Part shown: positions 25,288 through 54,804 of the stretch, piece after piece
Layout: each line of letters begins with the position of its first letter
Position numbering within the stretch: position 1 is the first letter of the stretch
Origin: Bdellovibrionia bacterium
Lineage (GTDB): Bacteria > Bdellovibrionota > UBA1018
NCBI GenBank assembly: GCA_045805065.1
Contig: JBJMMA010000060.1
Coordinates: forward strand, 15,462 to 79,461
DNA length: 64,000 bases
Direction of reading: 5' to 3'
The notes under the pieces: generated by a model
What the model saw: only the letters and a program-made list of their open reading frames with translations
What the model was told of the DNA's origin: nothing
Database searches by the model: none
Position numbers and translations under genes: made by a program

Positions 25288-26115
25288 ATGTCAGTTCTGG
25301 AGTTTGATAACTATCGGCTGTACTTGCGCTCCGTACTTGCTGATCGGGCATCGACAAATCCGAGGTACTCTCTTCGGGCATTCGCGAAGAGTCTCGAGCT
25401 GGCTCCCTCCTATTTATCGGCAGTCATGAATGGAAAGAAATCACTTTCTCCTGAGACTGCTTACGCTGTAGCGGAGAAGCTCAGATTAGATGAACAAGAG
25501 GCAACGTATTTCCGCATCCTGGCTCAGATGGAAGCCACGAAAAATCCTGCTTTGAAAGAGAGCTTGCTTCAGCGAGCTCAGACTCTTGCCCCAAGTGTGG
25601 TTGTGAATGATCTCAGCGTTGATCAGTTCAAAATGATCTCTGACTGGCATCACTACGCCATATTTGCGGCGGTCGATCTCTCTGACATTGAGGCGACGCC
25701 AGAACGGATTGCAAAAATCCTTGGACTAAACCTTGCTGAAGTCCAAGTTGCCGTGGAGCGCATGATCCGATTGGAGATGCTCGAGAAGGACGCAGAAGGG
25801 CGCTTAAAACAAACGATCTCACATTCAAGGATTGTTTCGTTGGCGCCCAACAGGGCAGTGAGAAGCCATCACCGTCAGAACTTGGAAAAAGCGATCGAGA
25901 GTATCGGATTGCAGAGGCCGGATGAAAGATTCATGGGGTCTGAGACCTTTTGTATTGATGAATCACAATTTGAGGAGTTTCAGAAGCTCTGCAACCAGTT
26001 CCTCGACAGCGCGCTGGCTCTCGCGAAGAAAGCGAAGACCAAAAACCAGGTGTACCACTTAGGTGTTCAGTTTTTCAGGTTTTCACAAGAAAAACCAAAG
26101 GAAGAAAAAAAATGA
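25288..26115 (+). CDS. TIGR02147-like putative HTH regulator (paralog 1 of 3)
   Basis: The N-terminus MSVLEFDNYRLYLRSVL parallels MKPFEFNDYRLYL (51586) and MLFEYRDYKKYL (53983). The three proteins are similar throughout (LSxxSHF/SPEx helix, conserved C-terminus). The track ORF starts upstream at 25027 and runs through repeat copy A. An alternative start is at 25207. Confidence 0.6.
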   Translation: MSVLEFDNYRLYLRSVLADRASTNPRYSLRAFAKSLELAPSYLSAVMNGKKSLSPETAYAVAEKLRLDEQEATYFRILAQMEATKNPALKESLLQRAQTLAPSVVVNDLSVDQFKMISDWHHYAIFAAVDLSDIEATPERIAKILGLNLAEVQVAVERMIRLEMLEKDAEGRLKQTISHSRIVSLAPNRAVRSHHRQNLEKAIESIGLQRPDERFMGSETFCIDESQFEEFQKLCNQFLDSALALAKKAKTKNQVYHLGVQFFRFSQEKPKEEKK

Positions 26116-27086
26116 GAAGCATGCAATCAGGCTCAGTCCTTGTAAGTTTGACGTGCGGATTATCACTCATGTTTGCAATTAATGCGATGGCAGGTGGAGG
26201 GGGCGTACGCGGCGGCGGCGGCGATATCTGCGAAGATCGCATCCAGCAGATCCGGGATGATATCAAGTCCTGGATCCATCAAGGTGGCGCGCAGGGATTA
26301 TCACTTCCGCAAGGAGTCTCCGCAGATCGGTATGCCGACCTGATGCTAGATCAAATGAAAACCGCACGCGTGAAATGCGTCGGCGCGGCAGACAAAGGTT
26401 ACCCGGTCGCGATCGGAAGCACGCCAAAGGTTTGCAAGTTCTCAATCGATCAATCGGGCTCTCAGATTACTTGTGACTACATCAAGTTTCTCGCGACTAA
26501 CGAATCGGACCAATACGTTTTGATTCATCATGAGTACGCGGGGCTTGCGGGTGTCGAGGTCCCTAACCAGGGCGATTCCCGCTACGACGTTTCCAATCAG
26601 ATCTCCGCCTATCTTGAAGACCAGGTTGTGAAGAAGCTTGCGGTAAAGCCCGTAACCTCCGAGCTCCAGGTGGGTTCGAGAGTTGTCATCGATGACAATC
26701 AATTTGAGACCAAAACCGGCCAGATTACTTCGATCACTTCCGGAAAGTACACCTATTATCAGGTCAGGCTATCCAATAACTCGGGTAGGGCGGGAGATGA
26801 GCAAATCATTGAGAGAAGTTACATCAAGGCGACCGAAGTCGGCAGTCTGAATGGCGTGAGAAAAGGTCAGAAAGCCATCTGCAGGAATATTTACGACATT
26901 TCCGGCAGCGCGTTTGAAGGCAACGTTGCTCATATTTATTCAAACGGTTTCGTCGAAATCACTATTTCGACCAAGAAGGCCACTTCGGTTACGTCCACTT
27001 CTCAGTTATCTGAAGGACCCCTGTTTTTGTCGTCGGTCCCAGGCGCTTGGGAAATTCCTCGCTTTGGATACAACTGCTCTTATTAA
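26112..27086 (+). CDS. secreted GGGGD-I-C family protein (paralog 1 of 3)
   Basis: Signal peptide MRSMQSGSVLVSLTCGLSLMFAINA, then GGGGVRGGGGDICEDRIQQIRDDIKSWIHQGG and QYVLIHHEYAGLAGVE. It is clearly homologous to the 52780..53730 product and more distantly to the 50560..51411 product. Confidence 0.65.
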   Translation: MRSMQSGSVLVSLTCGLSLMFAINAMAGGGGVRGGGGDICEDRIQQIRDDIKSWIHQGGAQGLSLPQGVSADRYADLMLDQMKTARVKCVGAADKGYPVAIGSTPKVCKFSIDQSGSQITCDYIKFLATNESDQYVLIHHEYAGLAGVEVPNQGDSRYDVSNQISAYLEDQVVKKLAVKPVTSELQVGSRVVIDDNQFETKTGQITSITSGKYTYYQVRLSNNSGRAGDEQIIERSYIKATEVGSLNGVRKGQKAICRNIYDISGSAFEGNVAHIYSNGFVEITISTKKATSVTSTSQLSEGPLFLSSVPGAWEIPRFGYNCSY

Positions 27087-27092
27087 AAATTA

Positions 27093-27221
27093 GAACAAAA
27101 CAATACGAGTAAAGAACAAAGATAAAAGTCCTCGTTGTGACATCCTGTCACATTCCCAGTCGTCTTCCTGACTGGGAACGACTCGGCTTTTATCTTTGTT
27201 CTTTACTCGTATTGTTTTGTT
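27093..27221 (+). repeat. copy B of the hairpin element family: perfect 36-bp inverted repeat around the conserved core
   Basis: GAACAAAACAATACGAGTAAAGAACAAAGATAAAAG at 27093-27128 is exactly complementary to 27186-27221. The core is TCCTCGTTGTGACATCCTGTCACATTCCCAGTCGTCTTCCTGACTGGGAACGACTCGG. It lies between the convergent genes 26112(+) and 27278(-). Confidence 0.75.
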
Positions 27222-27235
27222 CACGTTTGTTAGAC

Positions 27236-27277
27236 GTGACGCGTATGCGCTACAAAAAGGAGGCGGCCACCTTTTGG
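27236..27277 (+). other. conserved 42-nt box GTGACGCGTATGCGCTACAAAAAGGAGGCGGCCACCTTTTGG (copy 1 of 3)
   Basis: Identical at 41 of 42 nt to 50455-50496 and sharing GCGCTACAAAAAGGAGGCGACCACCTTTT with 60087-60116. It abuts the stop codon of the minus-strand gene 27278..28885. Confidence 0.55.
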
Positions 27278-28885
27278 TTACTTCGATTTTTTCTTCACGC
27301 GAATGCCGCCGAATTTTCCGCCTGAAGGCTTACCTTCGTTACGGAAGCTTTTTGGCTTGCCGTAGCTTGGTTTGTCGCCAGATGCGGATCGGCCGCCAAA
27401 CGCAGGCTTTTTGCCTCTCGGACGCTCATCGAAATCTTTTGGTGAAGCTTTTGGATAAGCTGCCTTAGCGGTGAAGGACTTTCCTCCGACAGGCTTCGTG
27501 CTTGGAGCGCTGGCTCCATCGGCCGAGCCACCGACTTGAAGAATATCTCCGCGCCAGACTGGGCCAAGATGGGCGGTGTTGATTCGTCCAGGGCGCTCGG
27601 GTTCGCAAATCAGAACATCACCGGCTTTTGTGAGCGGATCACTGATGACGAGTTTGTGTGTTGGATTGCGCTTTGGAGAACGTTGATCGTTGGATGTGAT
27701 CCAAAGGTAGGAGAACTTCAGCCACAGGCGCTCAGAGCCCAGAGCTTTTGAAAACTCTGCGAACCATCTGCCTGGAACGCGCGTTGGAACGGAGAAGTGG
27801 CAATAATCTTTTCCATAAGAAAGAGGGCAAGTCTCAGCGTGAGGGCAGGGGCCCCAGAGCATGGTTGCCGTTTTCTCGATCGTCTCGGTTTGGAAGAGAC
27901 GGTTTCTTAAACGCGACAGAAACTGAGAAGTGGTTTTCGCTGCAGGCTCAACAAAGAGCACGCCGCCGCCTTGGGCTTTTTCAAGAAGGTTTGCCCAGAT
28001 TGTTTCGATCTTTGGCTTCTTCGTTGTTTCGGCTTCAGTTTCTTCGCCGTCGTAATCTTCATTACCAACTGGACCCTCTCCGCTATCTAAAAGATCGAGT
28101 GGTTCTTCATCTTCACGAGCTTTAAAGCGGTTTGGAAGCGTTTTGGCTTCGTTCATGACATGGCCCAGAAGAATGAGCGACATCGGAGCTTTGAGCTGCG
28201 CGGGCGCATCCCACCAGTTTGCTGTCTGAAGATGAACAGTCACTTTGCCGCGAAGACGTGGGAACTGATCGGAGAGCGCTTGCACGAGCGCTTTTCCGTC
28301 TTCCATGATCGTGCGCTGAGTATCGAACCAATAAAGCTCGATCGGAGGAAAGTCTCCGCCGCGCGCCTGAAGAAGGCGCAATAGAAAACCAATCGATGCA
28401 GTGCCGGGGCCTGCGCCAAGATCCGCGATTCTTAAAACGCCCTGCTTGCGGCCATGCTCAAGCGCTGCTTGAACAGCGGCATTGTGCATTTCAAAAAGCG
28501 AGACGAACTTGGCCATTTGAAGAGGGAGGAAATAAAGAAGGTAAGCCGAGCGAAACTTCGGATGCTGAAAGTAGGCAGGAATCTGCTCGGGGCGCTCTTC
28601 GGTGAAAAGCTCAGAAAGATCTTTCACGCCTTTGGAGAAAAAGCGGACGTCCTCCTTGGCGAACGGTTTATCCTTCCAGCTATCGCGAGGGCTGTAGTGC
28701 TCTTTCACGTAGGCTGGAACCATTTCGTCCACAAACCAGGTCCAGGCGGGGGGGAAATCCAGCTGAGGAGATGCCAGTTTTATGACGCTCAACGGGCGAT
28801 CACTCGACTGGTTTGAGGTTGGACGGGGGGATATCGGCTTAGGCAGGGGGGTTTTTGATCGCATGGTGTATCTTACTTGTCGCAT
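27278..28885 (-). CDS. Rsm22-like SAM-dependent methyltransferase with a Cys cluster and lysine-rich tail
   Basis: 535 aa. The SAM motif VLRIADLGAGPGTAS and the Cys cluster GPCPHAETCPLSYGKDYCHFS resemble the Rsm22/mitoribosomal methyltransferase family. The C-terminal ~90 aa are K/G/P-rich. Confidence 0.65.
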   Translation of the reverse strand: MRQVRYTMRSKTPLPKPISPRPTSNQSSDRPLSVIKLASPQLDFPPAWTWFVDEMVPAYVKEHYSPRDSWKDKPFAKEDVRFFSKGVKDLSELFTEERPEQIPAYFQHPKFRSAYLLYFLPLQMAKFVSLFEMHNAAVQAALEHGRKQGVLRIADLGAGPGTASIGFLLRLLQARGGDFPPIELYWFDTQRTIMEDGKALVQALSDQFPRLRGKVTVHLQTANWWDAPAQLKAPMSLILLGHVMNEAKTLPNRFKAREDEEPLDLLDSGEGPVGNEDYDGEETEAETTKKPKIETIWANLLEKAQGGGVLFVEPAAKTTSQFLSRLRNRLFQTETIEKTATMLWGPCPHAETCPLSYGKDYCHFSVPTRVPGRWFAEFSKALGSERLWLKFSYLWITSNDQRSPKRNPTHKLVISDPLTKAGDVLICEPERPGRINTAHLGPVWRGDILQVGGSADGASAPSTKPVGGKSFTAKAAYPKASPKDFDERPRGKKPAFGGRSASGDKPSYGKPKSFRNEGKPSGGKFGGIRVKKKSK

Positions 28886-28937
28886 ACCTCGTGCTGGAGT
28901 GTCTAGCTGACCGGCGAAAACGTGCTACTCTTTATAT

Positions 28938-29450
28938 ATGAGTTTGAAGGGAAGCCTTAAAGATGTTGGACCGATCGAGCTGAATCTTCCCAAAAGAAGT
29001 TTCTGGCGGGATCGGATTCGACAGATTTGGGCATTTTATTGTCCACTTTGTAACGTTCCAAGACGAGTTCCTTACCAACCGCGACCGGGCTTCAAGCACA
29101 TGGCTCAGGTGGGATTAACGGCGGTCGTTTTTATGCTGGCCACCTGGAGCTGGTTTGAGTGGAAGGGGATTGTCAGCTTCTTTCCTCTTTGGTCCGTTTT
29201 TGAGGTGATCTATCGCGCTCGTGTGCGCGCTGCGTTGGCCTGTGATCGTTGCGGATTTGACCCCTATCTCTACCTGATTGACGTGCCTCGAGCGCGCGAA
29301 GTGGTTGAAAATCATTGGCGAAAAAAGTTTGCTGATAAAGGGATTCCTTACCCATCAAAGCCATCATTAAACCCATCTGGGGCACCGGCAAATGCCAAGC
29401 CTGCAGGGGGAGCGGGCACTAAAAGCGGTTCTCCCGAAATGGTCACTTGA
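28938..29450 (+). CDS. hypothetical membrane protein with a CxxC...CxxC zinc-ribbon-like motif
   Basis: 170 aa, containing CPLCN...CDRCG and one TM helix (VGLTAVVFMLATWSWF). It lies upstream of ssb. Confidence 0.45.
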   Translation: MSLKGSLKDVGPIELNLPKRSFWRDRIRQIWAFYCPLCNVPRRVPYQPRPGFKHMAQVGLTAVVFMLATWSWFEWKGIVSFFPLWSVFEVIYRARVRAALACDRCGFDPYLYLIDVPRAREVVENHWRKKFADKGIPYPSKPSLNPSGAPANAKPAGGAGTKSGSPEMVT

Positions 29451-29483
29451 CAGCTGTTGCTGCGCAACGCTAGACCTTCAGGC

Positions 29484-29999
29484 ATGTCTGTCAATAAAGT
29501 TATTTTGGTGGGGCGCTTGGGGCAGAATCCAGAAGTGCGATACACGCCGTCGGGCGCAGCTGTCGCAAACTTCAGTGTTGCAACCAACGAATCATGGTCC
29601 GATAAGAACGGCCAGAAACAGGAACGTACCGAGTGGCACAAGGTTGTCGTTTGGGGCAAGCTCGCCGAGCTTTGCAATCAGTTCCTCGCTAAGGGTCGCC
29701 AGGTTTATCTCGAAGGTCGCTTGCAGACCCGCCAATGGCAGGACAAGGACGGACAGACCAAGTACACGACCGAAATCCAGGCTCAAACCATTCAGTTCTT
29801 GGGCGGCCAAGGCGCTGAGCGTGGTCCCGGAATGGATCAAAGCATGGGCCAAAGCATGGGCGGCGGTAACAGCGGTTACGGCCAAGGCGGCGGTGGCGGT
29901 TATAACCGCGGAGCCCCACAAGGTGCTGGCCCTTCGGGCCCAGGTCCTCAGTTTGGAGCAGAAGAGCCTTCTTTCACTGAAGACGATATTCCGTTCTGA
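29484..29999 (+). CDS. ssb: single-stranded DNA-binding protein
   Basis: [38 protein letters not shown] is the OB-fold N-terminus. The tail is G/Q-rich and ends with the acidic tip DDIPF. The track ORF opens at an upstream TTG (29457). Confidence 0.85.
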
Positions 30000-30001
30000 A
30001 C

Positions 30002-30739
30002 ATGCGCGCGCTCATTGTCGTTCCTACATATAACGAATTAGAAAACATCCAGAATCTTGCACAATCGGTCATGGCGGTCATCCCACCTAACGTGGACCTC
30101 CTGATTGTGGACGACAATTCTCCTGATGGAACTGGAAAGCTTGCCGATCAGCTTGCTGCACAGGATTCGCGGATTCACGTCCTGCATCGCGCCCGTAAAA
30201 TGGGCCTGGGCACGGCTTATGTGAATGGCTTTAACTGGGGACTTGAGCGGGGCTACGAAGCCTTGATCGAGATGGATGCGGACTTCTCGCACGACCCTAA
30301 GTACCTGCCGCGCATGCTCGAGCTTCTTGAGATCAATGATGTGGTGATCGGCTCCCGTTATGTTCCAGGTGGCGGAACCGTGAACTGGGGAATGGGGCGC
30401 AAAGTCCTGAGCCGTGGCGGAAGCATGTACTCGCGTCTGATCTTGGGCGCGGGCATTCGTGACTTTACCGGTGGCTTCAATGGCTGGCGCCGTAAGGTGA
30501 TCGAATCCGTGGATCTGCCATCGCTTCGATCGGACGGCTATTCCTTTCAGATTGAGCTGAAGTACCGCGCATTTCTCAAAGGCTTCAAAATTACCGAGTT
30601 TCCAATTGTTTTCGAAGATCGGAAAGTCGGGAAGTCAAAAATGCATCGCCGGATCGTGATTGAAGCGCTTCTTCGCGTTTGGGAGTTTCGCTTCAAATCC
30701 CCGTTCCGCCAGGCACTCGTTCAAACTCAGCGTCATTGA
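30002..30739 (+). CDS. GT2 polyprenyl-phosphate glycosyltransferase (Dpm1/ArnC-like; polyprenol-P-mannose or similar synthase)
   Basis: 245 aa. The GT-A signatures are present: VVPTYNELENI, the DXD motif IVDDNSPDGT, and DADFSHDP. Confidence 0.7.
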   Translation: MRALIVVPTYNELENIQNLAQSVMAVIPPNVDLLIVDDNSPDGTGKLADQLAAQDSRIHVLHRARKMGLGTAYVNGFNWGLERGYEALIEMDADFSHDPKYLPRMLELLEINDVVIGSRYVPGGGTVNWGMGRKVLSRGGSMYSRLILGAGIRDFTGGFNGWRRKVIESVDLPSLRSDGYSFQIELKYRAFLKGFKITEFPIVFEDRKVGKSKMHRRIVIEALLRVWEFRFKSPFRQALVQTQRH

Positions 30740-30771
30740 CACTTCGAGGTTTACATCCTTAATATTTAAGG

Positions 30772-31689
30772 ATGACCCGAAAACGTTCTGCTGTGTCCGT
30801 CATCTCAAGTGCGAAGTCCCTGTTTTTGGCGTTGGGGGCTTTGGGAGTAACAACGCTTGCGAATGCGGCCACGCCGTTCATTCCGACTGCGATCCTGGTC
30901 GATAAAAACACGAACCAGCTTCATGTGACTCGCTATGAAAACGGCGAGTATCGCATCCTGAAGACCTATCATGCCACTTTGGGAAAAGTGAAAGGCGATA
31001 AGCAGGACGAAGGGGACCTTAAAACCCCTGAAGGGATCTACACGTTCAAAGCGTTTTTGACGCCGCCATCACTGTCCAAAAAGTTTGGGAAGATGGCTTT
31101 TTACGTCAGCTATCCCAATACGTACGATGAGCTTGCCGGTCACACTGGAAACAACATCATGCTTCATGCGACGGACACGCCCGAGCGTCTGAAGCAGGAG
31201 TTCGATAGCCTGGGTTGTGTCGTGGTGAAGGATCAGGAGATTGCGGAGATCAAGCCTTACATCAAGTTAGGCCTGACGCCGATCTTGATCTTCCCTGAGT
31301 TGACTCCTGAGTACATGAAGCCCGGTCAGGACAATACTCTGGTGAGCTTCTTTAAGAGCTGGATCAAGTCCTGGGAGACGAAGAGCCTGGATGACTATAT
31401 CGCTCACTATCATTCGGACTTCTCGGCTCAGGGCAAGGACAAGGCCGCATGGAGAGCTTTTAAAGCGACTTTGAATAAGAAGTACGCCAGCATCGAGATC
31501 AATCCGGAGAGCGTCCTTTATTACCGCCATCCCAAGTACTCGATGATCACTTTCACCCAGAACTATCGCTCCAAGCTGGTGGGCGGAGGCTGGGGACATC
31601 GCTCGCATGGGACGAAGATTCTCTACATCGCGGAAGAAGCGGGTCAGCCTAAGATCATTGCAGAGACTTTCTCGAATCTGAGTTGGTAA
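30772..31689 (+). CDS. secreted L,D-transpeptidase (YkuD) domain protein
   Basis: Signal peptide. The catalytic block reads NIMLHATDTPERLKQEFDSLGCVVV (H...S.GC). There is a C-terminal extension. Confidence 0.6.
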   Translation: MTRKRSAVSVISSAKSLFLALGALGVTTLANAATPFIPTAILVDKNTNQLHVTRYENGEYRILKTYHATLGKVKGDKQDEGDLKTPEGIYTFKAFLTPPSLSKKFGKMAFYVSYPNTYDELAGHTGNNIMLHATDTPERLKQEFDSLGCVVVKDQEIAEIKPYIKLGLTPILIFPELTPEYMKPGQDNTLVSFFKSWIKSWETKSLDDYIAHYHSDFSAQGKDKAAWRAFKATLNKKYASIEINPESVLYYRHPKYSMITFTQNYRSKLVGGGWGHRSHGTKILYIAEEAGQPKIIAETFSNLSW

Positions 31690-31725
31690 GAGTCGTCCCT
31701 GACTCTCGACCTCATTCAGTTCAGA

Positions 31726-32835: not shown

Positions 32836-32986
32836 GAGTATAGAACCCCCAGGCGCTTATGCAGCAAGCCATATGCCTGGAGGTTCTGTTCAAAAAGCCT
32901 TAGAATTAGAGCGCGTGTACGATTCGACACTTCTCAGAAGAGTCGACACTGCATAATTCTTAAACGCTTAATTTTATTGATTAAGT

Positions 32987-34288: not shown

Positions 34289-34380
34289 GGGCCGGATTTC
34301 TCATGCTGTACTTAATAAGTCAAATATTGAAAAAGCGATTATCGTTAAGGGCTTAGGTGTGGTATTTCCGTAGGACTCGT

Positions 34381-45320: not shown

Positions 45321-45360
45321 GACACGCGCCCCCGGCCTTCGGGACAAGCATTTGGCGTGC

Positions 45361-46749: not shown

Positions 46750-46799
46750 CTGTTTCTCCCATGTTGGTTTAGGCCGAACGATCATGCTAGGTTTAAGGC

Positions 46800-47576
46800 A
46801 TGACGATCGACATTTTGTCTTATAATCGCGAAGCATGGAATCGCAAAGTCACTCAGGGAAACGAATGGACCAAAGCCGTATCCACTGAGGAGGTCGATCA
46901 AGCGCGTCAAGGTAATTGGAAAATCGTTTTGACGCCTTTGAAGCCAGTTCCTCGCGATTGGTTTCCAAATCTGAAAGGCACAAAGGTTCTCGGACTTGCT
47001 TCAGGCGGTGGTCAGCAAGGGCCCATTCTTGCTGCAGCAGGAGCCGAAGTGACGGTATTTGATAATTCACCCGCGCAACTTGCTCAGGATGCACAGGTTG
47101 CCGCGCGCGATGGACTCAGTATTAAAACCGTACAAGGTGATATGAAAGATCTGTCTTCTTTTGAAGACGAGAGCTTTGATCTCATCGTTCATCCTTGTTC
47201 AAACTGCTTTGTTCCGGATGTGAAGCCTGTTTGGAAAGAGGCGTACCGGGTTTTGAAAAACGGCGGGACGCTGATCTCAGGCTTTACCTATCCGATTGTC
47301 TTCACACTTGATCCTGAGCTTGAAGCGAAAGGGATTTTCCAAATTAAGTATAAAATCCCTTACTCGGACCTTGATCTCACCGAAGAAGAGCGCAAGCGCT
47401 ACACCGATAAAGGCGAGCCGCTGGCTTTTGGCCATACTTTGGAAGACCAGATTGGCGGTCAGATTGCGGCAGGATTTTCGATTACTGGCTTTTATGAGGA
47501 CAAATGGAGTCCTGATAAGAGCCCGCTCTCTGCGCTGATGTCTTGCTTTGGCGCCACTCGGGCTCTAAAATCTTGA
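46800..47576 (+). CDS. class I SAM-dependent methyltransferase
   Basis: Motif I reads KVLGLASGGGQQGPILAAAGAEVTVFDNS. An acidic motif II (LIVHPCS) and a GGTLISGF post-II motif are also present. Confidence 0.6.
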   Translation: MTIDILSYNREAWNRKVTQGNEWTKAVSTEEVDQARQGNWKIVLTPLKPVPRDWFPNLKGTKVLGLASGGGQQGPILAAAGAEVTVFDNSPAQLAQDAQVAARDGLSIKTVQGDMKDLSSFEDESFDLIVHPCSNCFVPDVKPVWKEAYRVLKNGGTLISGFTYPIVFTLDPELEAKGIFQIKYKIPYSDLDLTEEERKRYTDKGEPLAFGHTLEDQIGGQIAAGFSITGFYEDKWSPDKSPLSALMSCFGATRALKS

Positions 47577-47647
47577 CTCATAAATAAAAACGCCTCCAAG
47601 CCAAAGGCCAGGAGGCGTTCTAATAAATATCAGCAGTAAAAACCGGA

Positions 47648-48817
47648 TCAGACTTGAGCGAGCGCTTGCTCGAGATCAGCTTTGAGATCCGCAAGATCTT
47701 CAATGCCGACGCTTACGCGCACCAGGTTGTCATGAATGCCAAGCGCTTTGCGGCTTTCTGCCGGAACGCTTGCGTGAGTCATGATCGCTGGATGCTCGAT
47801 GAGCGATTCAACGCCACCTAGGCTTTCAGCCAGGGTGAAAAGCTTCACGTTCTCTAAGAAGGTGCGAGCTTGTGGCAAGCCGCCTTTGATGAAGAAGGTG
47901 ATCATTCCACCAAAGCCCGTCATCTGCTTGCGAGCCAGCTGATGCTGAGGGTGAGACTCGAGGCCTGGGTAGACGACGCTCTCAACTTTAGGATGCTTCT
48001 CCAGATACTTGGCGATTTCCATGGCGTTCTCTGCGTGGCGCTCCATGCGAACATGGAGGGTCTTGAGACCGCGCATGACGAGGAAGCAATCCATCGGAGC
48101 AGGGACTGCGCCGACAGCGTTTTGCAAGAACTTGAGCTGCGTGTAGAGTGCGTCGTTGCTGGTGACCAGAATGCCGCCGACCACATCGCTGTGGCCGTTC
48201 ATGTACTTGGTGATGCTGTGAACGACAACATCAGCGCCCAAGGACAATGGCTTCTGGAAGTAGGAGCTCATGAACGTGTTATCAACAACCGAGATCACAC
48301 CGCGCTTCTTGGCCATCGCTGCAATTGCTGCGATGTCGATGAGCTTGAGCATTGGGTTGGTTGGTGTTTCAACCCAGACCATCTTGGTGTTTGGGCGAAA
48401 CGCGGCTTCTGCCTTGGCGAGATCCGAAAGATCCACAAAGGAGAATTCGATTCCGTAGTTCTTGAACACCTTATCGAAGATGCGGAAAGTGCCGCCGTAG
48501 ACGTCATCCGAGCATACGACATGATCGCCGCTCTTGAGCGTCTGCATGATCGTCGCAGTCGTTGCAAGGCCAGACGAGAAGGCGAGGCCATACTTGCCAC
48601 CTTCAAGAGCTGCCACGCATTGCTGATACGCCGTACGCGTTGGATTGTCCGTACGGGAGTACTCATAGCCACGGTGTTCGCCAGGCGATGCTTGAGCGTA
48701 CGTCGAGGTTTGATAAATCGGGGTCATGACCGCGCCCGTGACCGAGTCCGGTTCCTGACCTGCGTGAATGGCCTTGGTGCCAAAGCCCATCTTTTTCTCT
48801 TCAGTATATTGGCTCAC
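47648..48817 (-). CDS. cystathionine gamma-lyase / gamma-synthase (PLP-dependent Cys/Met metabolism family)
   Basis: AIHAGQ...TPIYQTSTY are present, together with the PLP-lysine region SITKYMNGHSDVVGG. The GTG start overlaps the CBS stop by 4 nt (GTGA), which suggests translational coupling. Confidence 0.8.
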   Translation of the reverse strand: MSQYTEEKKMGFGTKAIHAGQEPDSVTGAVMTPIYQTSTYAQASPGEHRGYEYSRTDNPTRTAYQQCVAALEGGKYGLAFSSGLATTATIMQTLKSGDHVVCSDDVYGGTFRIFDKVFKNYGIEFSFVDLSDLAKAEAAFRPNTKMVWVETPTNPMLKLIDIAAIAAMAKKRGVISVVDNTFMSSYFQKPLSLGADVVVHSITKYMNGHSDVVGGILVTSNDALYTQLKFLQNAVGAVPAPMDCFLVMRGLKTLHVRMERHAENAMEIAKYLEKHPKVESVVYPGLESHPQHQLARKQMTGFGGMITFFIKGGLPQARTFLENVKLFTLAESLGGVESLIEHPAIMTHASVPAESRKALGIHDNLVRVSVGIEDLADLKADLEQALAQV

Positions 48818-50214
48818 GTGCGGTTCCCCATAAAAGTTAACAAGTCGATCTTGGTGATGATTCCCAGGATCTTGCCTTGTTGAGAAGGATCATTGACCAG
48901 CGGGATCTTTCCAGCGGTCACAAGACGAGAGACCTTTTCAACAGGATCGCTTGGCGTGACGAATTCCACGGCAGACATCACAAGGCTTTCGATTGTGTCG
49001 GAGGTCTTGATCTTGCCTTCGTAAAGAGCGGAAAGAAGTCCGCTCTCGGTCACGATTCCCTTGATCCAGCCTGCAGCGTCGGTCACAGGAAGCTGGCTGA
49101 TGCTCTTTTCGCGCATCATTTCGATCACAGCAGAAACTTTCTGAGTTTGCTGGATCATCATGACGTTCTGATCCTTGCTGCTCATGGAGCGGAGGACGTC
49201 AGCCACGGTTCCGATCGAGTTTGCTTCTAAGAAGCCTGCTTCGCGCATCCAATCGTCGTTGTAAACTTTGGACATGTAGCGATTGCCGCTGTCTGGAAGG
49301 ATGACGAGAACCTTCTTGCCCTTGAGCTTATCGCCCTGGCTCTTGATCCAACGGACCGCGCCGCAAACTGCGGAGCCCGAGGAGATGCCGGAGTAGATGC
49401 CTTCTTTGGTGAGAAGCTCACGGGTCATGAGGAAGGATTCTTTATCTTCGACCACAACCATGTCATCCACGACGGAGAAGTCGTAGTTCTTTGGAATGAA
49501 GTCTTCGCCGATTCCTTCGATCTTGTAAGTCTTAGGAAGGGTCTGCATCTTTCCGGTCTTGTAATAGTCGTAAACGATCGAGCCTTTCGGATCGACGGCG
49601 ACCATCTGAACGGATGGCTTCTTCTCCTTGATGAACTTGCCGATGCCGCAGATCGTTCCACCGGTTCCAATGCCTGCGACGATGACGTCGACGTCTGGGA
49701 ACTGGCTCAGGATTTCTGGGCCCGTGGTGTTGTAGTGGGCTTCGCGGTTTGAAAGATTATCGTACTGATTGAGATAGATCGCATTCTCGGTTTCGCGAGC
49801 CAAGCGACGAGACACTTGGTAGTAGCTGCGAGGATCATCTGGCTCGACAGCAGTCGGAGTCACGACGACCTTTGCGCCGAATGCGCGCAGGTTTTGAATC
49901 TTCTCAGAGGACATTTTGTCTGGAAGAACGAAAATGCACTTGTAGCCTTTGATCGCGGAAGCGATTGCGAGGCCCACGCCGGTGTTGCCGCTCGTGCCTT
50001 CAACGATCGTCCCACCTGGCTTGATGATGCCTTTTTTCTCAGCGTCTTGAATCATCCACCAGCCGATACGATCCTTGATCGAGCCGCCTGGATTACAGAA
50101 CTCGAGCTTGGCGTAGACTTCGGCTTGGACGCCTTCGGTGACACGATTGAGACGAACGATCGGCGTATTGCCAATCGCTTGCAGAACATTTTCATAGACT
50201 TGTGAATGAGGCAT
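48814..50214 (-). CDS. cystathionine beta-synthase (PLP domain plus tandem CBS pair)
   Basis: The CysK-like core reads NPGGSIKDRIG...GTSGNTGVGLA...GIGTGGTICG. It is followed by two CBS domains. Together with the downstream lyase it gives a reverse transsulfuration pair. Confidence 0.85.
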   Translation of the reverse strand: MPHSQVYENVLQAIGNTPIVRLNRVTEGVQAEVYAKLEFCNPGGSIKDRIGWWMIQDAEKKGIIKPGGTIVEGTSGNTGVGLAIASAIKGYKCIFVLPDKMSSEKIQNLRAFGAKVVVTPTAVEPDDPRSYYQVSRRLARETENAIYLNQYDNLSNREAHYNTTGPEILSQFPDVDVIVAGIGTGGTICGIGKFIKEKKPSVQMVAVDPKGSIVYDYYKTGKMQTLPKTYKIEGIGEDFIPKNYDFSVVDDMVVVEDKESFLMTRELLTKEGIYSGISSGSAVCGAVRWIKSQGDKLKGKKVLVILPDSGNRYMSKVYNDDWMREAGFLEANSIGTVADVLRSMSSKDQNVMMIQQTQKVSAVIEMMREKSISQLPVTDAAGWIKGIVTESGLLSALYEGKIKTSDTIESLVMSAVEFVTPSDPVEKVSRLVTAGKIPLVNDPSQQGKILGIITKIDLLTFMGNRT

Positions 50215-50310
50215 AGGGGGGATTTATCGCACAATACGCCGCGCGGCGCAACGGAACCAAAAGGTGGTCGCCTACTTTTGGTAGCGATAGTGCGTCAAGG
50301 TTCTTTATCC

Positions 50311-50440
50311 GAGTAAAACAAAGCGAATAGGGCTCTTTAGCTAAAATCCCTCGTTGCGACTTCCTGTCGCATGCCCATTCGGCATCCTGCCTGGGCACGA
50401 CTCGGTTTTTACCTAAAGAGCCCTATTCGCTTTGTTTAAC
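50311..50440 (+). repeat. copy C of the hairpin element family
   Basis: The arms GAGTAAAACAAAGCGAATAGGGCTCTTTAGCTAAAA and TTTTACCTAAAGAGCCCTATTCGCTTTGTTTAAC pair with one mismatch. The core is TCCCTCGTTGCGACTTCCTGTCGCATGCCCATTCGGCATCCTGCCTGGGCACGACTCGG. Relative to copy A it has a compensatory U-A to G-C change (TTCCCA/TGGGAA becomes TGCCCA/TGGGCA). Confidence 0.75.
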
Positions 50441-50454
50441 CAGGTTCGTTAATT

Positions 50455-50496
50455 GTGACGCGTATGCGCTACAAAAAGGAGGCGACCACCTTTTGG
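50455..50496 (+). other. conserved 42-nt box (copy 2 of 3): GTGACGCGTATGCGCTACAAAAAGGAGGCGACCACCTTTTGG
   Basis: It has a one-nucleotide difference from the 27236 copy. Confidence 0.55.
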
Positions 50497-50501
50497 AAAC
50501 G

Positions 50502-50537
50502 AAATGCCCCGCACTTTTGGGGTGCGAGGCATTTTAG
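50502..50537. terminator. GC-rich hairpin terminator (ATGCCCCGCAC-TTTTGGG-GTGCGAGGCAT) downstream of the 50560(-) gene
   Basis: Ten of eleven stem pairs form. There are T-runs on both sides, which is consistent with bidirectional termination. Confidence 0.5.
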
Positions 50538-50559
50538 ACTTGTTTCGGGCAGCCTGCAG

Positions 50560-51411
50560 TTATTTGCAGGTGATGGATTCGAATCGGGAGAGTTTGGAGT
50601 AGTCGACTTCAGTGACTACGATTACGGTGCCCCCGAGGCTTGCGCTATCTTTCGCTTTGAGGCCCTTTAAGTGTCCATTTTCATCAACAGAGGCATAATC
50701 ACTGCCGCTGACTTCGCTCTGTGAGTAGGAGGTCGCATTCTGATATTGAAGGAACTTGCAGATTCCTTGTGCGACTGGCTCCGATCTCTCATTTTCTACG
50801 TGGATGGTATCCACTGGAATCCCTAAGAACAGGGCTTTTGCGTATTTGTTTTCGGTTCCGAAATAGAATTTCTTGCCGTTCACCATGGCAAAAGGACGAA
50901 TGAATGTGACGGAACCGTCGTTGTTTTCCATGACCTGATCCGCGCTCATGCGATTGTTGATCGCTTGGGAGTTCGTACGAGCGATTTTAACCAAGTCTTC
51001 GGAAATGTAGTACTCGCCGTCATTTTCGTAACCCGCGAGGACGGACATTTCGTGAGCAGTGAGGCCGAGCTTTTGGTTCAGGTCCAGCTTTTCCCACTCG
51101 TTGACGAGAAGGTCCGTTTGTCCAGTGGCAGGGTTGGAGCGAGCTTGGCGATCCAGTTGCACTACGGGTAAGCATCTTAAGTTTCTTTTCACTTGAATCA
51201 GATCGTCCAGGCGAACCAGCGGATTGATTGCGTTGATTTTGTCCTGGCCGGCAAGCGCGAGAGTTTTTACGATCTCGCCCATGAGGTTGGCGTATTCGAG
51301 GCAGCGAGCATCGCCACCGCCGCCTGAGCGGGGGCCGGCGTGGGCAGGGCTCACAAGAAGACTTGTGAGAAGAGTGAAGGCAAAGATCGAAGACGAAAGT
51401 TTGCGGGACAT
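50560..51411 (-). CDS. secreted GGGGD-C family protein (paralog 2 of 3, divergent from the TIGR02147-like regulator at 51586)
   Basis: Signal peptide MSRKLSSSIFAFTLLTSLLVSPAHA, then GPRSGGGGDARCLEYANLMGEIVK, with similarity to the 26112 and 52780 products in the central region. Confidence 0.6.
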   Translation of the reverse strand: MSRKLSSSIFAFTLLTSLLVSPAHAGPRSGGGGDARCLEYANLMGEIVKTLALAGQDKINAINPLVRLDDLIQVKRNLRCLPVVQLDRQARSNPATGQTDLLVNEWEKLDLNQKLGLTAHEMSVLAGYENDGEYYISEDLVKIARTNSQAINNRMSADQVMENNDGSVTFIRPFAMVNGKKFYFGTENKYAKALFLGIPVDTIHVENERSEPVAQGICKFLQYQNATSYSQSEVSGSDYASVDENGHLKGLKAKDSASLGGTVIVVTEVDYSKLSRFESITCK

Positions 51412-51585
51412 GGGTACTCCTAATTAACTCAAATAGCCGACCGTTTTTATCATGTTTTATGGGCGTGTTCCAGCGGCTTTTGGAACTGGCCCTCACTGGG
51501 GTCGAGCGGGAAAATAGGGCAAAATGAGCTGACGCGATAGGTCAATATTGTCAATAAATAACGAAAGTCGTGCTATATTGGCACA

Positions 51586-52380
51586 ATGAAGCCCTTTGAG
51601 TTTAATGACTACAGACTCTACCTCGATGCTCGAATCAAAGCGGAGTGGGGCGCGATCACTCGTGTAGCCAAGGCGGCAAATTGCCAGCGATCGTATTTGT
51701 CGAGAGCGCTTAAGGGAGAGGTTCTTCTCACTCCCGATCATCTGCATGGCATCTGTGAGTTTTGGCGTCTCTCAGAAGAGGAGACCGAATATCTCATGCT
51801 GCTTCTTGAAAAAGCGCGCGCCTCCACGCGCTCTTATCGTGAGCGAGTGGAGAGAAAGCTTTCGCTGCTTCTGCGTGAGCAGGAAGATCTCGCAAAGCGA
51901 TTGCATACGCCAAGAATTCCCACGACGGATCGGGAGCTTCTTTACTATTCAGCGTGGCATTGGATCATGATTCACATGAGTACGTCGGTTCCTTCGCTTC
52001 AGACTGAAAAAGCGATGTCTCAGCATCTGAATCTTTCGCCTGAGCTCGTTCGATTCGCGCTGACTCAGCTTGCGGAATGGGGGCTTGTCAAACGGGAAGG
52101 TGATCGATGGAAATTTGCCTCAGGCAATATTCATCTTCCAAAAAACTCGCCCCTCATTGGCCAGCACCACGCGCATTTCAGACAGAAGGCGGTTGAGGAT
52201 TCACTTCTGCCTTATGGAGATGGGCTACATTACTCACAGCTTCAAGCGATGGAAGAGGAGACTTTCCGCGAGATCAAAGCGCTCTTTTTGCGATCCATTG
52301 ATGATTCTTTGAAGCTTGCGGATCCAGCGAAAGAAGATAGGCTTGTTGCCGTGAGTCTGGATGTTTTTCGGGTTTATTGA
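51586..52380 (+). CDS. TIGR02147-like putative HTH regulator (paralog 2 of 3)
   Basis: MKPFEFNDYRLYLDARIKAEWGAITRVAKAANCQRSYLSRALKGEVLLTPDHLHGICEFWRLSEEETEYLMLL parallels the other two paralogs. A -10-like TATATT lies 8 nt upstream of the ATG with no SD (possibly leaderless). A GTCAATA direct repeat lies upstream. Confidence 0.65.
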   Translation: MKPFEFNDYRLYLDARIKAEWGAITRVAKAANCQRSYLSRALKGEVLLTPDHLHGICEFWRLSEEETEYLMLLLEKARASTRSYRERVERKLSLLLREQEDLAKRLHTPRIPTTDRELLYYSAWHWIMIHMSTSVPSLQTEKAMSQHLNLSPELVRFALTQLAEWGLVKREGDRWKFASGNIHLPKNSPLIGQHHAHFRQKAVEDSLLPYGDGLHYSQLQAMEEETFREIKALFLRSIDDSLKLADPAKEDRLVAVSLDVFRVY

Positions 52381-52433
52381 AAACGATAGTCGCCGGAAAC
52401 TTCACAGGAGCTCCCGGCGACTGCTTTTCATTC

Positions 52434-52736
52434 TCAATCAATGCAGGCAAAGCAGACTGCGTATCGTGCTGAAGCTCTGCCAAGATAAGCTTCAAGCGAA
52501 ACTTGGTAACAGCTGTATCCAGCTTCTTGAGCGGCTTTGCGGCAGCCCATCGCGGAGTTCGGACCGTTAGGAAGCAAGTCGCAGTTTCCGTTTGGGTACA
52601 AGTCCTGGATCAGATCGCCAATGAAATTTCGATGTTCCACAAGATGCGTGCTGCGGTTGCAGGATGTGATGACGTCATCTGCGTGTGCGAGGGTTGAGGC
52701 CAGGGTCAAACTAAGAATCATAACTAAGTTTTTCAT
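52434..52736 (-). CDS. small secreted cysteine-rich protein (100 aa, 7 Cys after signal-peptide cleavage)
   Basis: The internal ATG at 52736 gives MKNLVMILSLTLASTLAHA, a signal peptide, followed by a Cys-rich mature part. It is co-transcribed downstream of the 52780..53730 gene. Confidence 0.5.
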   Translation of the reverse strand: MKNLVMILSLTLASTLAHADDVITSCNRSTHLVEHRNFIGDLIQDLYPNGNCDLLPNGPNSAMGCRKAAQEAGYSCYQVSLEAYLGRASARYAVCFACID

Positions 52737-52779
52737 ATCTATTCCTGATTTAAGCTTTGAAAGGTTTTGCAGCGTGAAT

Positions 52780-53730
52780 TTAGTCATTCGCGTAAGCAAT
52801 GCAGCGAACTGAGTTCCGGTCTTCATAAGAAGTCTGGTATATTTTTCCGCTATCACCGCTGAGAACAAGTAAATGCATCCAGGCGCCTGTGTAAGGAGAG
52901 TTGCTCCAAACGTATTCGTTTTCCATATGTGGAAGGACTTCATGGAGGCCGTGGCCTTCGGCGTGTTTAAGATTCTCAGCCGATGGCATGATGCTGCCAA
53001 CCTTGCGGCAAATATCTTCTGCATAAACATAGGAGTCGACTCCCAGTTTATCGCTCCAGATGATCCCGTTTGGATCCTTCCATGCTTCGCCAAAACCCTC
53101 GTAATCGACGCGCTCAAAAATTCCTTGAGCTGAGGTGATGCACTTTGTTCCAACGCGAATCGGTTTTGTGTGATCGAGCTCAGAGCAATCTACAGGCGCT
53201 TGCGGGCGGGGGGCGATCGCGAGTTTCTTCACAAGCTCATCGACAAGAAACGCGGAGAGCTGGTTAGAGACGCTGTAGTCAGAATTCTCTCCCACGTTGA
53301 TCTCAATGCCTGTCAGTCCTGCGTATTCGTGATGAACGAGGACGTACTGTGAGGATTCGTCCGTATCGAGAAATCTTTTTGCGTTACAGGTGATTCTGGA
53401 TGCGCCGCCTGCGACGAAGTTCTTGCAGGTTTTTTCCGCGCCTTCGACCATCACGGGTTGGTCGGTGCAGCTGATTTTGGCTTCTGCGATCGCCTTCAGC
53501 ATCAGCTCATTGTAGCGTTGCGTTCGTGTCCCGGAAGATAGCTCAAGCCCGGACGAGCCGTTCTTATTAATCCAGGATGCGATATCGTCTCGCACCGTTT
53601 TAAAGCGATTTTCACAGATATCTCCTCCGCCACCTGATCCTGCACCGGCAGAGGCGTTGGCCGAGTGGAAAGTGAGCAGAGATACGGCCAGAGTGGCCAA
53701 CAGTGATGAGAATGGCGAGCGTAACACCAT
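52780..53730 (-). CDS. secreted GGGGD-I-C family protein (paralog 3 of 3)
   Basis: Signal peptide, then GAGSGGGGDICENRFKTVRDDIASWINKNGS and QYVLVHHEYAGLTGIE, a close paralog of the 26112..27086 product. Confidence 0.65.
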   Translation of the reverse strand: MVLRSPFSSLLATLAVSLLTFHSANASAGAGSGGGGDICENRFKTVRDDIASWINKNGSSGLELSSGTRTQRYNELMLKAIAEAKISCTDQPVMVEGAEKTCKNFVAGGASRITCNAKRFLDTDESSQYVLVHHEYAGLTGIEINVGENSDYSVSNQLSAFLVDELVKKLAIAPRPQAPVDCSELDHTKPIRVGTKCITSAQGIFERVDYEGFGEAWKDPNGIIWSDKLGVDSYVYAEDICRKVGSIMPSAENLKHAEGHGLHEVLPHMENEYVWSNSPYTGAWMHLLVLSGDSGKIYQTSYEDRNSVRCIAYAND

Positions 53731-53982
53731 AGGGACTCCTATTTATTTTCGCCGCAGCGGTAGGGTTGTATTATTGTTGACTATTGAAGTCAACAAATGG
53801 GTTCTGGTTTAATTTAGCCGTAGTTTTAAAGAGTTAACCTCGCCGTCACCCTCCCTTAGCTTGCTGCGGCTATTTGAGGGTGACGACTTGAGCGGTGTTT
53901 TAACGCGGTGCATGCGTTTGAGATAGATATGTTTTATAAAAATACATTCGAAAAACTGACTATTTACTCAATAATTGAGGAA

Positions 53983-54804
53983 ATGCTCTTTGAATATCGC
54001 GACTATAAAAAATATCTCAATGCGGCTCTCTCAACGGGAGGGGCTTCGCGTGGAAGTCGCACTCGCCTGGCCGAGGCGCTTCGATGTCAGACCGCATTTA
54101 TCTCGCATGTGCTGAATGGCAACTCGCATTTCAGTCTTGAGCATGCGGTGGTGATCTCGCGCTTTCTCAATCACACGCCGGATGAATCGAAGTATTTCAT
54201 TCTCCTCGTTAGCCTGGGGCGTGCCGGATCCAAAGAGCTTGAGGATCATTTCAAGGCGCAGATCGATGAGATGCAGAAAAAGCGTGCGCAGATCAAAGAG
54301 CGCATTACTGTCGATCGCGCGCTGACGGCAGAAGCCCAGATTCGATACTACAGTGCCTGGTATTACTCGGCGATTCACGTGGCGACGTCAATCTCTGCGC
54401 TGCAGACGCGAGATGCGCTTGCCTCAGCGTTGAATCTTTCGCCAGCTCTGGTGAATGAATGCCTGGAGTTTCTGGCTGAACACGGCCTCGTGGTCGCGAA
54501 GAAAGACAGATATGTGATTGGTCCGGTGCGGATGCATCTCGGCGCAGATTCGCCGATGATCTCAAGGCTTCACGCCAACTGGCGCCTGCAAGCCATGCAG
54601 TCGATGGAACGCCCGGTGGCTAGAAATACAAGTGATCTGCATTACTCCACTGTCCTTACGATTTCGCACGAAGATGCAAAGCGGGTGAGAGAAGCGTTGC
54701 TTCGTGCAGTCGATGAAACCGAAAAGATCTTCCGGCCATCACCCGAAGAAGTCGTCTACTGCGTCGGAATGGACTGGTTTCGTGTCTCGCGAGATGGAAG
54801 CTGA
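53983..54804 (+). CDS. TIGR02147-like putative HTH regulator (paralog 3 of 3)
   Basis: The start is chosen at MLFEYRDYKKYL by paralog alignment, with GAGGAA just upstream. The track ORF opens at 53908. Confidence 0.6.
   Translation: MLFEYRDYKKYLNAALSTGGASRGSRTRLAEALRCQTAFISHVLNGNSHFSLEHAVVISRFLNHTPDESKYFILLVSLGRAGSKELEDHFKAQIDEMQKKRAQIKERITVDRALTAEAQIRYYSAWYYSAIHVATSISALQTRDALASALNLSPALVNECLEFLAEHGLVVAKKDRYVIGPVRMHLGADSPMISRLHANWRLQAMQSMERPVARNTSDLHYSTVLTISHEDAKRVREALLRAVDETEKIFRPSPEEVVYCVGMDWFRVSRDGS

Follow-up and report, generated by a model that had tools for sequence, protein, structure and literature searches.

Why does a regulator gene stand next to a gene for an exported protein three times within one stretch of 64,000 nucleotides (nt) of DNA from a Bdellovibrionia bacterium (GenBank assembly GCA_045805065.1, contig JBJMMA010000060.1, positions 15,462 to 79,461 of the forward strand; hereafter the window, in whose own numbering all positions are given)? 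The original prediction for this stretch had named seven open reading frames (ORFs), all of which were present at their coordinates, and had seen in them a lineage-specific, multi-copy cassette of a TIGR02147-like helix-turn-helix (HTH) regulator and an exported protein under local control; the core of that reading was supported and could be extended. We consider it rather probable that each locus is a copy of a self-contained, autoregulated two-gene cassette that expresses an exported, modular protein with a zincin-like domain. As had been described, reg1 and sec1 are arranged in tandem (their stop and start codons overlap as ATGA), and sec2/reg2 and sec3/reg3 are divergent. The genes and domains concerned are the following, with lengths in amino acids (aa).

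25288..26115, plus strand: reg1, TIGR02147 family protein with XRE-type HTH and DUF4423, by profile matches (275 aa)
26112..27086, plus strand: sec1, exported protein (324 aa), predicted signal peptide at about residues 1-27, with GGGGDICE
26211-26651, plus strand: N-terminal domain (N-domain) of sec1, about residues 34-180, with HHEYAG at residues 139-144
50560..51411, minus strand: sec2, exported protein (283 aa), divergent superfamily member with GGGGDARC, LTAHEMSVLAGYENDGEYYIS and its own C-terminal domain
51586..52380, plus strand: reg2, DUF4423/TIGR02147-like regulator, by profile matches (264 aa)
52780..53730, minus strand: sec3, exported protein (316 aa) with predicted signal peptide, GGGGDICE and HHEYAG
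53203-53640, minus strand: N-domain of sec3, about residues 31-176
53983..54804, plus strand: reg3, TIGR02147 family regulator, by profile matches (273 aa)

The three regulators had been assigned to one family, and sequence and profile searches agree that they are mutual paralogues (E 7e-45 for reg2/reg3, and 1e-12 and 5e-8 for reg1 against the other two). Each exceeds the gathering score of Pfam DUF4423 (PF14394, 30 bits) with 108.4 bits for reg1, 49.9 for reg2 and 63.0 for reg3; reg1 (164.5 bits) and reg3 (65.3 bits) are also above the curated cutoff of 50 bits for NCBIfam TIGR02147 (Fsuc_second) and reg2 (34.3 bits) is below it, and by this score reg2 would strictly be called TIGR02147-like. 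An XRE/HigA-like HTH is indicated in the N-terminal part of all three, with weak winged-helix matches in the middle of the protein: HTH_3 at 29.9 bits in reg1 (gathering score 23), HTH_31 at 24.4 bits in reg2 (below 27), and sub-threshold matches only in reg3 (YdaS 19.6, HigA 22.4), and HTH_3 is found on many homologues in precomputed Pfam. The reg1 product is 100% identical to an NCBI protein of 275 aa annotated as 'TIGR02147 family protein', and for each of the sec1, sec2 and reg1 products there is an NCBI entry of 100% identity whose locus tag begins with ACJ763_. The 64-kb window held no additional copy of the regulator or the exported family. In the databases and literature searched, no function, target or partner has been assigned to TIGR02147/DUF4423, the sole trace being the Bdellovibrio bacteriovorus DUF4423 protein Bd3700, which is up in an intraperiplasmic growth-phase proteome table (value 2.67, PMC12546842).

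On the side of the exported proteins, sec1 and sec3 have a common N-terminal domain of about 145 aa (47% identity over 143 aa, E 4e-44), and their C-terminal halves are unrelated. The glycine run with D-I/A-C and the HHEYAGLxG block that had been reported for all three proteins were found in sec1 and sec3 (GGGGDICE...HHEYAGL), but sec2 reads GGGGDARC and AHEMSVLAGYE instead, and it shows no similarity to the other two by BLAST, phmmer or family hidden Markov model (HMM; E 0.2-9). Its own family of 10 proteins has the same layout, with a signal peptide, GGGGD-x-x-C and then ...AHE[LM]xVLAxYENDGEYYIS. When the sec2 and sec1/sec3 families were compared by hhalign, they were collinear over 133 columns (72% probability, E 3.4e-5); moreover, the matches of the unfiltered sec2-family HMM among about 6,000 ORFs were almost exclusively N-domain genes, one bridging sequence (L054 7134-8150) scored 2e-14 with it, and an iterative HMM search from the sec2 family without its signal peptide converged on 220 sequences that included the entire sec1/sec3 family and no unrelated proteins. 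Therefore, the profile-profile alignment, the bridging and the iteration together indicate that sec1, sec2 and sec3 are one superfamily, to which sec2 is linked by profile methods only, with a core of GGG[GS][DN] after the signal peptide, h-h-H-E-x5-G-x-E and [DS]-x-Y-x-[IV]-S. Public annotation begins sec1 at Met20 (305 aa), cutting most of the signal peptide (window 26112-26171); the ATG at 26112, which overlaps the reg1 stop, restores a normal signal peptide, as in homologues.

The N-domain occurs in many proteins. A search with sec1 returned at least 224 of them, all 'hypothetical' or nameless and all free of Pfam domains in their N-terminal part, and an exhaustive profile search of 1.84e9 representative proteins gave 1,199 clusters at E<=1e-3 (676 at E<=1e-30), in which the domain always started 20-90 residues from the N-terminus. 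The named sources were Bdellovibrio, Peredibacter, Bacteriovoracaceae, Pseudobdellovibrionaceae and 'Oligoflexia', all Bdellovibrionota bar one contig, and as far as labels show the family is confined to predatory Bdellovibrionota. That contig (L072, CAXPDR010000037.1; 115 kb), binned as Flavobacteriaceae, carries one complete tandem module and is either a mis-binning or the sole occurrence outside Bdellovibrionota. No Pfam or NCBIfam match fell in the N-domain of any of 119 members, these members matched no Pfam family at E<=0.001 except FGE-sulfatase, sec1-3 had no Pfam match at E<=0.01, including Peptidase_M78 (PF06114), and PDB sequence searches with the sec1/sec3 and sec2 family profiles gave no match. 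Thus, when we checked whether the exported proteins come from a known enzyme family, no curated family matched, though the predicted fold is zincin-like. The N-domain is an uncurated domain family, and our searches of databases and literature turned up neither the family nor its pairing with the regulator. Residues that do not vary in it are G-G-D-x-C-E, W, two Tyr, four Cys, K, H-H-E-x-x-G and S-x-Y-x-x-S, and further conserved polar residues (A5 numbering) are D5, E8, K73, Y102, S123, Y125, S128 and Q130. By a heuristic criterion, 115 of 117 members have a hydrophobic, signal-like N-terminal segment ahead of the motif, and these segments together with the four invariant Cys argue for export of the N-domain proteins.

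Is the pairing of the two genes more than a local accident? One genome per species was scanned, seeded on the LIHHEYAGL motif, which yielded 78 Bdellovibrionota loci, and both families were located by HMMs in the six-frame ORFs of these loci. A TIGR02147-like ORF was found within 600 bp of the N-domain ORF in 69 of 83 cases: 52 pairs were co-directional with the regulator upstream, usually with overlapping stop and start, and 17 were divergent. Four N-domain genes had no regulator in their locus, three of them cut by the contig end. In the same flanks, regulators not beside an N-domain gene occurred about once per 48 kb, so chance would account for only a few per cent of the pairing. The sec2-type genes examined each had a divergent DUF4423 gene 140-290 bp upstream, and adjacency is thus conserved across Bdellovibrionota for the sec1/sec3 type and for the sec2 type, as the original prediction expected. 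No other recurring gene family was found within 4 kb of the modules, so the unit consists of two genes. The loci numbered 14 in one metagenome-assembled genome and 5-6 in others, which makes this a multi-copy paralogous system, and a scan of viral contigs found no relatives, so that the cassette does not appear to be phage-borne.

Among the flank regulators, 23 had no N-domain neighbour, and most of these adjoined other signal-peptide proteins with a glycine run after the signal; 4 of these neighbours were divergent superfamily members and others had a single hhhHE motif at a similar position, which in two of them (L018 and L069) is a canonical HExxH. Distant TIGR02147 loci from metagenomes followed the same pattern. 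In L079, the neighbour carried GGND... and MHELLIFVGLE..DYTYS. In L081 (4001-6869), a TIGR02147-like gene (MarR_2 and DUF4423) was followed by two overlapping genes for exported proteins, the second with HELTH and the first without an HE motif.

The two halves of the cassette evolve at different rates. The regions after the N-domain (median 155 aa) fell into 117 BLAST clusters for 199 regions, the largest of which was the sec3 C-terminal type with 17 members. The sec3 C-terminus matched Lcl_C at E 0.12 (13 bits vs 34.9) and a cluster mate matched FGE-sulfatase at E 0.025, both sub-threshold, and another family member (P0094) had a clear FGE-sulfatase domain (1.8e-38); the sec3 C-terminal domain is possibly C-type-lectin-like (Lcl_C/FGE). 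The sec1 C-terminal type had 7 members, was modelled by AlphaFold2 (AF2) as beta-barrels of Tudor/SH3-like form and gave weak tandem-Tudor matches. Between modules whose regulators were 60-80% identical, the N-domains averaged 56% identity and the C-terminal regions were similar in 4 of 19 pairs. Exchange was also seen directly in a close relative (L083), in which reg2 and reg3 each have an orthologue of 93% identity (that of reg3 begins at the same Met) and the reg2-side intergenic region is 89% identical to that of the window. There, the protein encoded opposite the reg2 orthologue has an N-domain like that of sec2 (56%) and another C-terminus, and the reg3 orthologue faces the sec2 orthologue (73%), not a pair of sec3 and a Cys-rich protein. 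Within the cassette it is thus the exported gene that moves fast, and the regulator and its control region stay stable; the fast-evolving C-terminal domain presumably supplies target binding. At the site in L085 (5001-8460) that is syntenic with module 1 (RsmB ... Rsm22-like), we observed two tandem modules, the second with its regulator cut to 192 aa, and a Beta-lactamase2-domain gene that is absent from the window.

What, then, is exported? The N-domain was modelled by AF2 with a mean confidence (pLDDT) of about 97 in the full-length sec1 model and 90 (pTM 0.84) when modelled alone, with the element order of a long N-terminal helix, a second helix, a three-stranded sheet, the HHE helix and a short C-terminal helix. 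Foldseek with the full-length model gave just weak Tudor-like matches to the C-terminal domain, and with the N-domain alone it gave no significant match, although the top ranks were nearly all zincins. In the PDB these ranks (E 0.26-4) were selecase, jannalysin, HtpX, BlaR1, MATCAP, MMP-11, SPRTN and a Bacteroides putative zinc metallopeptidase; in BFVD they included a SprT-like protein (E 0.021, probability 0.96) and a 'metallopeptidase domain protein' (probability 0.99, TM-score 0.71, root-mean-square deviation 3.1), and further a phage metallopeptidase, an IrrE N-terminal-like protein, lethal factor and a Zn-dependent protease. One sec2-type protein had a trace Pfam PhageMetallopep match at the HE region (E 0.049). 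With moderate confidence, we predict that the N-domain has a minimal zincin-like fold. Its active-site helix would carry the motif HExxxxxGxE, which reads HHEYAGLAGxE in sec1/sec3 and AHEMSVLAGYE in sec2: both clades lack the second His of HExxH, with G, V, S or I in its place, and a conserved Gly stands 7 residues and a Glu 9 residues after the His. The metzincin extended motif is HExxHxxGxxH/D, and the Gly/Glu spacing of the N-domain recalls it. The canonical HExxH is kept in some other TIGR02147 partners (HELSH in L018, HEAMH in L069 and HELTH in L081).

These features could also mean that the N-domain is a non-catalytic scaffold, that is, a pseudo-protease, and that the exported proteins are adhesins or lectin-like binders whose specificity lies solely in the C-terminal domain, with the link to the regulator unchanged. 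The missing second zinc ligand across the sec1/sec3 and sec2 clades fits this, as do C-terminal domains that resemble binding modules (Tudor/SH3-like, Lcl_C/FGE-like), apparent ankyrin-type repeats, which were seen by eye only (Pfam found FGE-sulfatase alone among the 119 members), and a GLUG motif in another regulator partner; but H, E, G and the downstream E are invariant or nearly so, and together with the many conserved polar residues they suggest a retained active or ligand site. We regard the scaffold as a possible reading of the domain, although not the one we would choose.

How, then, could each regulator act on its neighbour? We compared the 200 nt before each of 86 regulators and found that an element recurs in tandem modules in which a 6-bp arm is followed by its reverse complement, a 5-nt spacer and the arm again (a-a'-N5-a; for example GTGTTCC-N7-GGAACAC-TTT-GTTCC), the spacer being ACTTT in 12 cases and AGTTT in 4. 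An a'-N5-a palindrome centred 45-70 nt before the start was present in 23 of 42 tandem modules (5.4 in shuffles), and the position of the element is fixed, with its centre 51-53 nt before the start codon. The arms vary by locus yet remain complementary, with 3-4 Watson-Crick pair types per position (in sites selected for complementarity). Moreover, arm Hamming distance followed the divergence of the HTH segment of the regulator (Mantel r 0.60, p<0.0005, n=17) more closely than that of other segments (0.01-0.42). In tandem modules a putative -35 TTG was enriched 35-37 nt and a TATA-like box ([TG]ATA) 11-15 nt before the start, and a Shine-Dalgarno-like 4-mer occurred in just 4 of 42, which fits leaderless or near-leaderless transcripts for the tandem-type regulators and reg2, for which the original prediction had proposed one; reg3 is preceded by a Shine-Dalgarno sequence (GAGGAA) and therefore lies outside this type. 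The proposed promoters were not called in a sigma-70 consensus scan, and a strict TANNNT search missed the -10 boxes, which resemble TATAAG/TATATC. We rejected sigma-54 as an explanation of the 'GGxxC-ACTTT-G' element on account of the wrong GG-to-GC spacing and the variable arms. No common motif was found across the divergent-type intergenic regions. The candidate control elements in the window are as follows.

25214..25241, plus strand: candidate operator of module 1, three half-sites GTGCTC-TGGTG-GAGAAC-GGATT-GTGCTC (a, a', a)
25271..25276, plus strand: -10-like GATATT, 11 nt before the reg1 start, no Shine-Dalgarno sequence between
51467..51486, unstranded: palindrome GTTCCA-N8-TGGAAC in the sec2/reg2 intergenic region, conserved in L083
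51541..51556, plus strand: direct repeat GTCAATA-TT-GTCAATA, including the 8-nt palindrome CAATATTG, just upstream of the putative reg2 promoter
51574..51579, plus strand: -10-like TATATT, 6 nt before the reg2 ATG, no Shine-Dalgarno sequence, putative leaderless-type start
53774..53796, unstranded: perfect palindrome TTGTTGACT-ATTGA-AGTCAACAA, 9-bp arms, 5-nt spacer, 44-66 nt upstream of the sec3 start
53845..53884, unstranded: inverted repeat GTCACCCTC-N22-GAGGGTGAC, reg3-proximal intergenic region, conserved in L083 with one compensatory change

The module 1 element is degenerate, with 5/6 pairing, GGATT in place of ACTTT and the second palindrome centred about 55 nt before the reg1 ATG. Upstream of reg2, the GTCAATA direct repeat had been pointed out before and was located at 51541-51556; it is kept in L083 with one change. 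The TATATT box that had been placed 8 nt before the reg2 ATG exists at 51574-51579, and the distance is 6 nt. The palindrome at 53774-53796 has no conserved counterpart in L083, whose reg3 orthologue stands opposite another secreted gene, and it therefore seems to travel with the sec3 cassette. An Rfam scan of 24500-55500 gave no match.

The same a-a'-a repeats might instead be RNA or DNA hairpins, either terminators of the upstream gene or attenuator-like alternative stems, and no operators at all. Indeed, the arms co-vary as a stem would with a conserved loop, the middle arm can pair with either flanking arm, and the distance from first to second arm (4-9 nt) is unusual for a protein-spaced site. 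However, the element lies upstream of the -35/-10 pair at the start codon and is therefore probably outside the regulator's transcript, its distance from the start is fixed, the T-run after it is short, and it is the HTH region of the regulator that the arm sequence follows most closely. On balance, hairpins strike us as a rather unlikely explanation of these repeats.

We return to the two-gene cassette, which would work as follows. Gene A would encode a cytoplasmic TIGR02147 transcription factor with an N-terminal XRE-type HTH and a DUF4423 with a second winged-helix-like region, and gene B a Sec-exported modular protein which, after cleavage between AxA and G, would begin with the glycine run and D-x-C-E, followed by the disulfide-containing zincin-like domain. 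The regulator would bind a paralogue-specific palindromic operator beside its own promoter and would thereby govern the production of itself and of the exported protein next to it. For tandem modules this would involve one transcript, often leaderless and translationally coupled, and in divergent modules an intergenic control region common to both genes; many orthogonal cassettes would coexist per genome, each switching on one exported protein. The family membership of the regulators, the new domain family, the conserved adjacency, the export signals, the hypervariable and swapped C-terminal regions and the operator-like architecture are observed here, and DNA binding at the sites, the sign of regulation, the inducing signal and a catalytic or scaffold role of the zincin-like domain are matters of inference. 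A role of the exported proteins in prey interaction is conjecture.

Several observations weigh against this reading or narrow it. Exported genes are swapped next to near-identical regulators, which shows that the pairing is positional and not the co-evolution of two proteins, and argues against a protein-protein partnership. Only about half of the tandem modules have a clear operator of the ACTTT type, that of reg1 is degenerate, and the divergent modules, including reg2 and reg3, have idiosyncratic repeats only. The Mantel correlation comes from n=17 with shared ancestry not fully removed, and the binding of the regulators to the candidate operators is something that we only infer from sequence. 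None of sec1, sec2 and sec3 has the second zinc-binding His of the canonical motif, which makes catalysis doubtful. Further, some of the 23 flank regulators without an N-domain neighbour have no signal-peptide neighbour either, and because the scan was seeded on LIHHEYAGL, the reverse statistic (regulators with an exported neighbour) was only sampled.

An XRE-type repressor next to a zincin-like gene also calls to mind a switch of the ImmR/ImmA or DdrO/IrrE type, in which the zincin-like partner cleaves the adjacent repressor and derepresses the operon. The genes come in the same order, HTH before zincin-like, and their stop and start codons overlap, IrrE-like and SprT-like folds are among the structural matches, HExxH is kept in some sister partners, and pairs of an XRE regulator and a COG2856 protease are well documented (PMC6868357, PMC12828697). 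However, the signal peptides (115/117) and four invariant Cys would make the partner act outside the cytoplasm, away from the regulator, HExxH is lost in every window copy, no Peptidase_M78 match was obtained with the window proteins (E<=0.01) or the 119 members (E<=0.001), and secreted genes are swapped beside unchanged regulators, as one would not expect of a protease and its specific substrate. The signals for export, the loss of HExxH, the missing M78 match and partner swapping therefore favour positional cis-regulation over repressor cleavage, which we hold to be very improbable here. A type II toxin-antitoxin or polymorphic toxin/immunity pair, with an exported toxin and the HTH protein as antitoxin or immunity factor, can practically be dismissed: the HTH is similar to the HigA type (TIGR02607 E 5e-4 and 8e-5; PDB 2icp E 0.0025), a constant N-terminus and variable C-terminus occur in polymorphic toxins too, and a metalloprotease/Xre toxin-antitoxin pair has been described (PMC10538038), but the exported partner is beyond the reach of a cytoplasmic HTH protein, there is no conserved third (immunity) gene, no known toxin domain was found and the C-terminal domains look like binding folds, and the PADLOC defence models gave no match for the exported proteins and sub-threshold traces for the regulators.

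Two further features lie beside the sec3 module.

52434..52736, minus strand: gene for a small exported protein with 6 Cys (100 aa), 43 nt downstream of sec3
52388-52422: terminator with a 14-bp stem, after the small 6-Cys gene

The small protein had been described as having 7 Cys and as part of the module; we count 6 Cys, found no Pfam or NCBIfam match for it and no homologue in the 78 related loci, and its gene appears from this comparison to be an accessory specific to this sec3 cassette. The window neighbours of the modules are housekeeping genes for RsmB, an Rsm22-like methyltransferase and enzymes of the cystathionine beta-synthase and gamma-lyase types.

Around the modules, we also observed a structured repeat in four copies, at 25069-25183 (plus), about 27089-27225 (plus), 50306-50436 (plus) and about 59920-60062 (minus). 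Two same-orientation copies flank the reg1-sec1 module, one lies just beyond the sec2 stop, and a degenerate copy is upstream of the reg1 orthologue in L085. Each has a conserved core of about 75 nt (…GACWTCCTGTCRCATKCCCA…CTGGGMACGACTCGG…) with two internal hairpins and a closing stem of 28-35 bp, which differs in sequence by copy with compensatory changes at 11 pairs; Rfam gave no match for the repeat. It may be a non-coding RNA, the core of a miniature inverted-repeat transposable element (MITE) or a bidirectional terminator, and the L085 tandem duplication could have arisen through it. A 42-nt repeat, GTGACGCGTATGCGCTACAAAAAGGAGGCGRCCACCTTTTGG, stands at 27236-27277 and 50455-50496 beside two of the structured elements, and inverted copies of CCAAAAGGTGGTCGCC at 50257-50272 (plus) and 50481-50496 (minus) enclose the structured core in a MITE-like unit of about 240 bp with terminal inverted repeats. 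Directly after the reg3 stop, a hairpin with a 20-bp stem (TCATAAATAAGAACCTCGG...CTGAGGTTCTTATTTATGA; 54815-54859, minus) lies between reg3 and the gene at 54875-55402, which converges on it, and probably terminates transcription in both directions.

A unit of one regulator and one exported protein, in up to at least 14 copies per genome, would offer a handle on how these predators tune their secreted repertoire, and it would give TIGR02147/DUF4423 a first functional context. The cassettes might also serve as a source of sets of orthogonal regulator-operator pairs. The N-domain combines a confidently predicted fold with the lack of a solved relative, and may illustrate the reuse of the zincin fold after loss of the canonical HExxH. 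A bolder proposal, which we put forward tentatively and think rather improbable as a whole, is that the cassettes make up a natural library of switches that are orthogonal to one another: every TIGR02147 paralogue would recognise an operator code of its own (variable 6-bp arms with ACTTT as the fixed spacer) and gate one exported non-canonical zincin with an exchangeable C-terminal targeting domain, the whole having descended from ImmR/ImmA-type pairs and been re-deployed outside the cell. If this were true, the predators would have a repertoire of effectors, specific to prey or surface, that evolves fast and whose members can be induced one by one.

Compared with known systems, the regulators are members of TIGR02147/DUF4423, and the literature searched describes neither their conserved pairing with a zincin-like exported partner nor the architecture of the operators. 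The model of the N-domain weakly but consistently resembles minimal zincins (the minigluzincins selecase and jannalysin, HtpX/M48 and SprT/Spartan) in its predicted backing helix, three-stranded sheet, active-site helix and C-terminal helix, with HE within the central helix and an acidic residue 9 after the His, but its second His is replaced, no Met-turn or glutamate helix was identified, and no sequence relationship was found. With polymorphic effectors and toxins the cassettes have in common constant N-terminal and diverse, exchanged C-terminal domains and many paralogues per genome; unlike them, they have no immunity gene, toxin domain or secretion-system marker, and the conserved neighbour is a transcription factor. 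As in ImmR/ImmA of ICEBs1 and DdrO/IrrE of Deinococcus, an XRE-type HTH gene stands directly upstream of a small zincin-fold gene, and these pairs are co-transcribed, autoregulated, self-contained units (PMC6868357, PMC12828697), as we propose for the cassette. Unlike in those pairs, the partner has a signal peptide, disulfide Cys and a hypervariable C-terminus and lacks HExxH and an M78 match, and the regulator, unlike ImmR and DdrO, has an extra DUF4423 domain. Cleavage by the partner would be topologically implausible. In kind, the cassette is a variant of the theme 'local HTH regulator plus adjacent zincin-like gene' and no new category.

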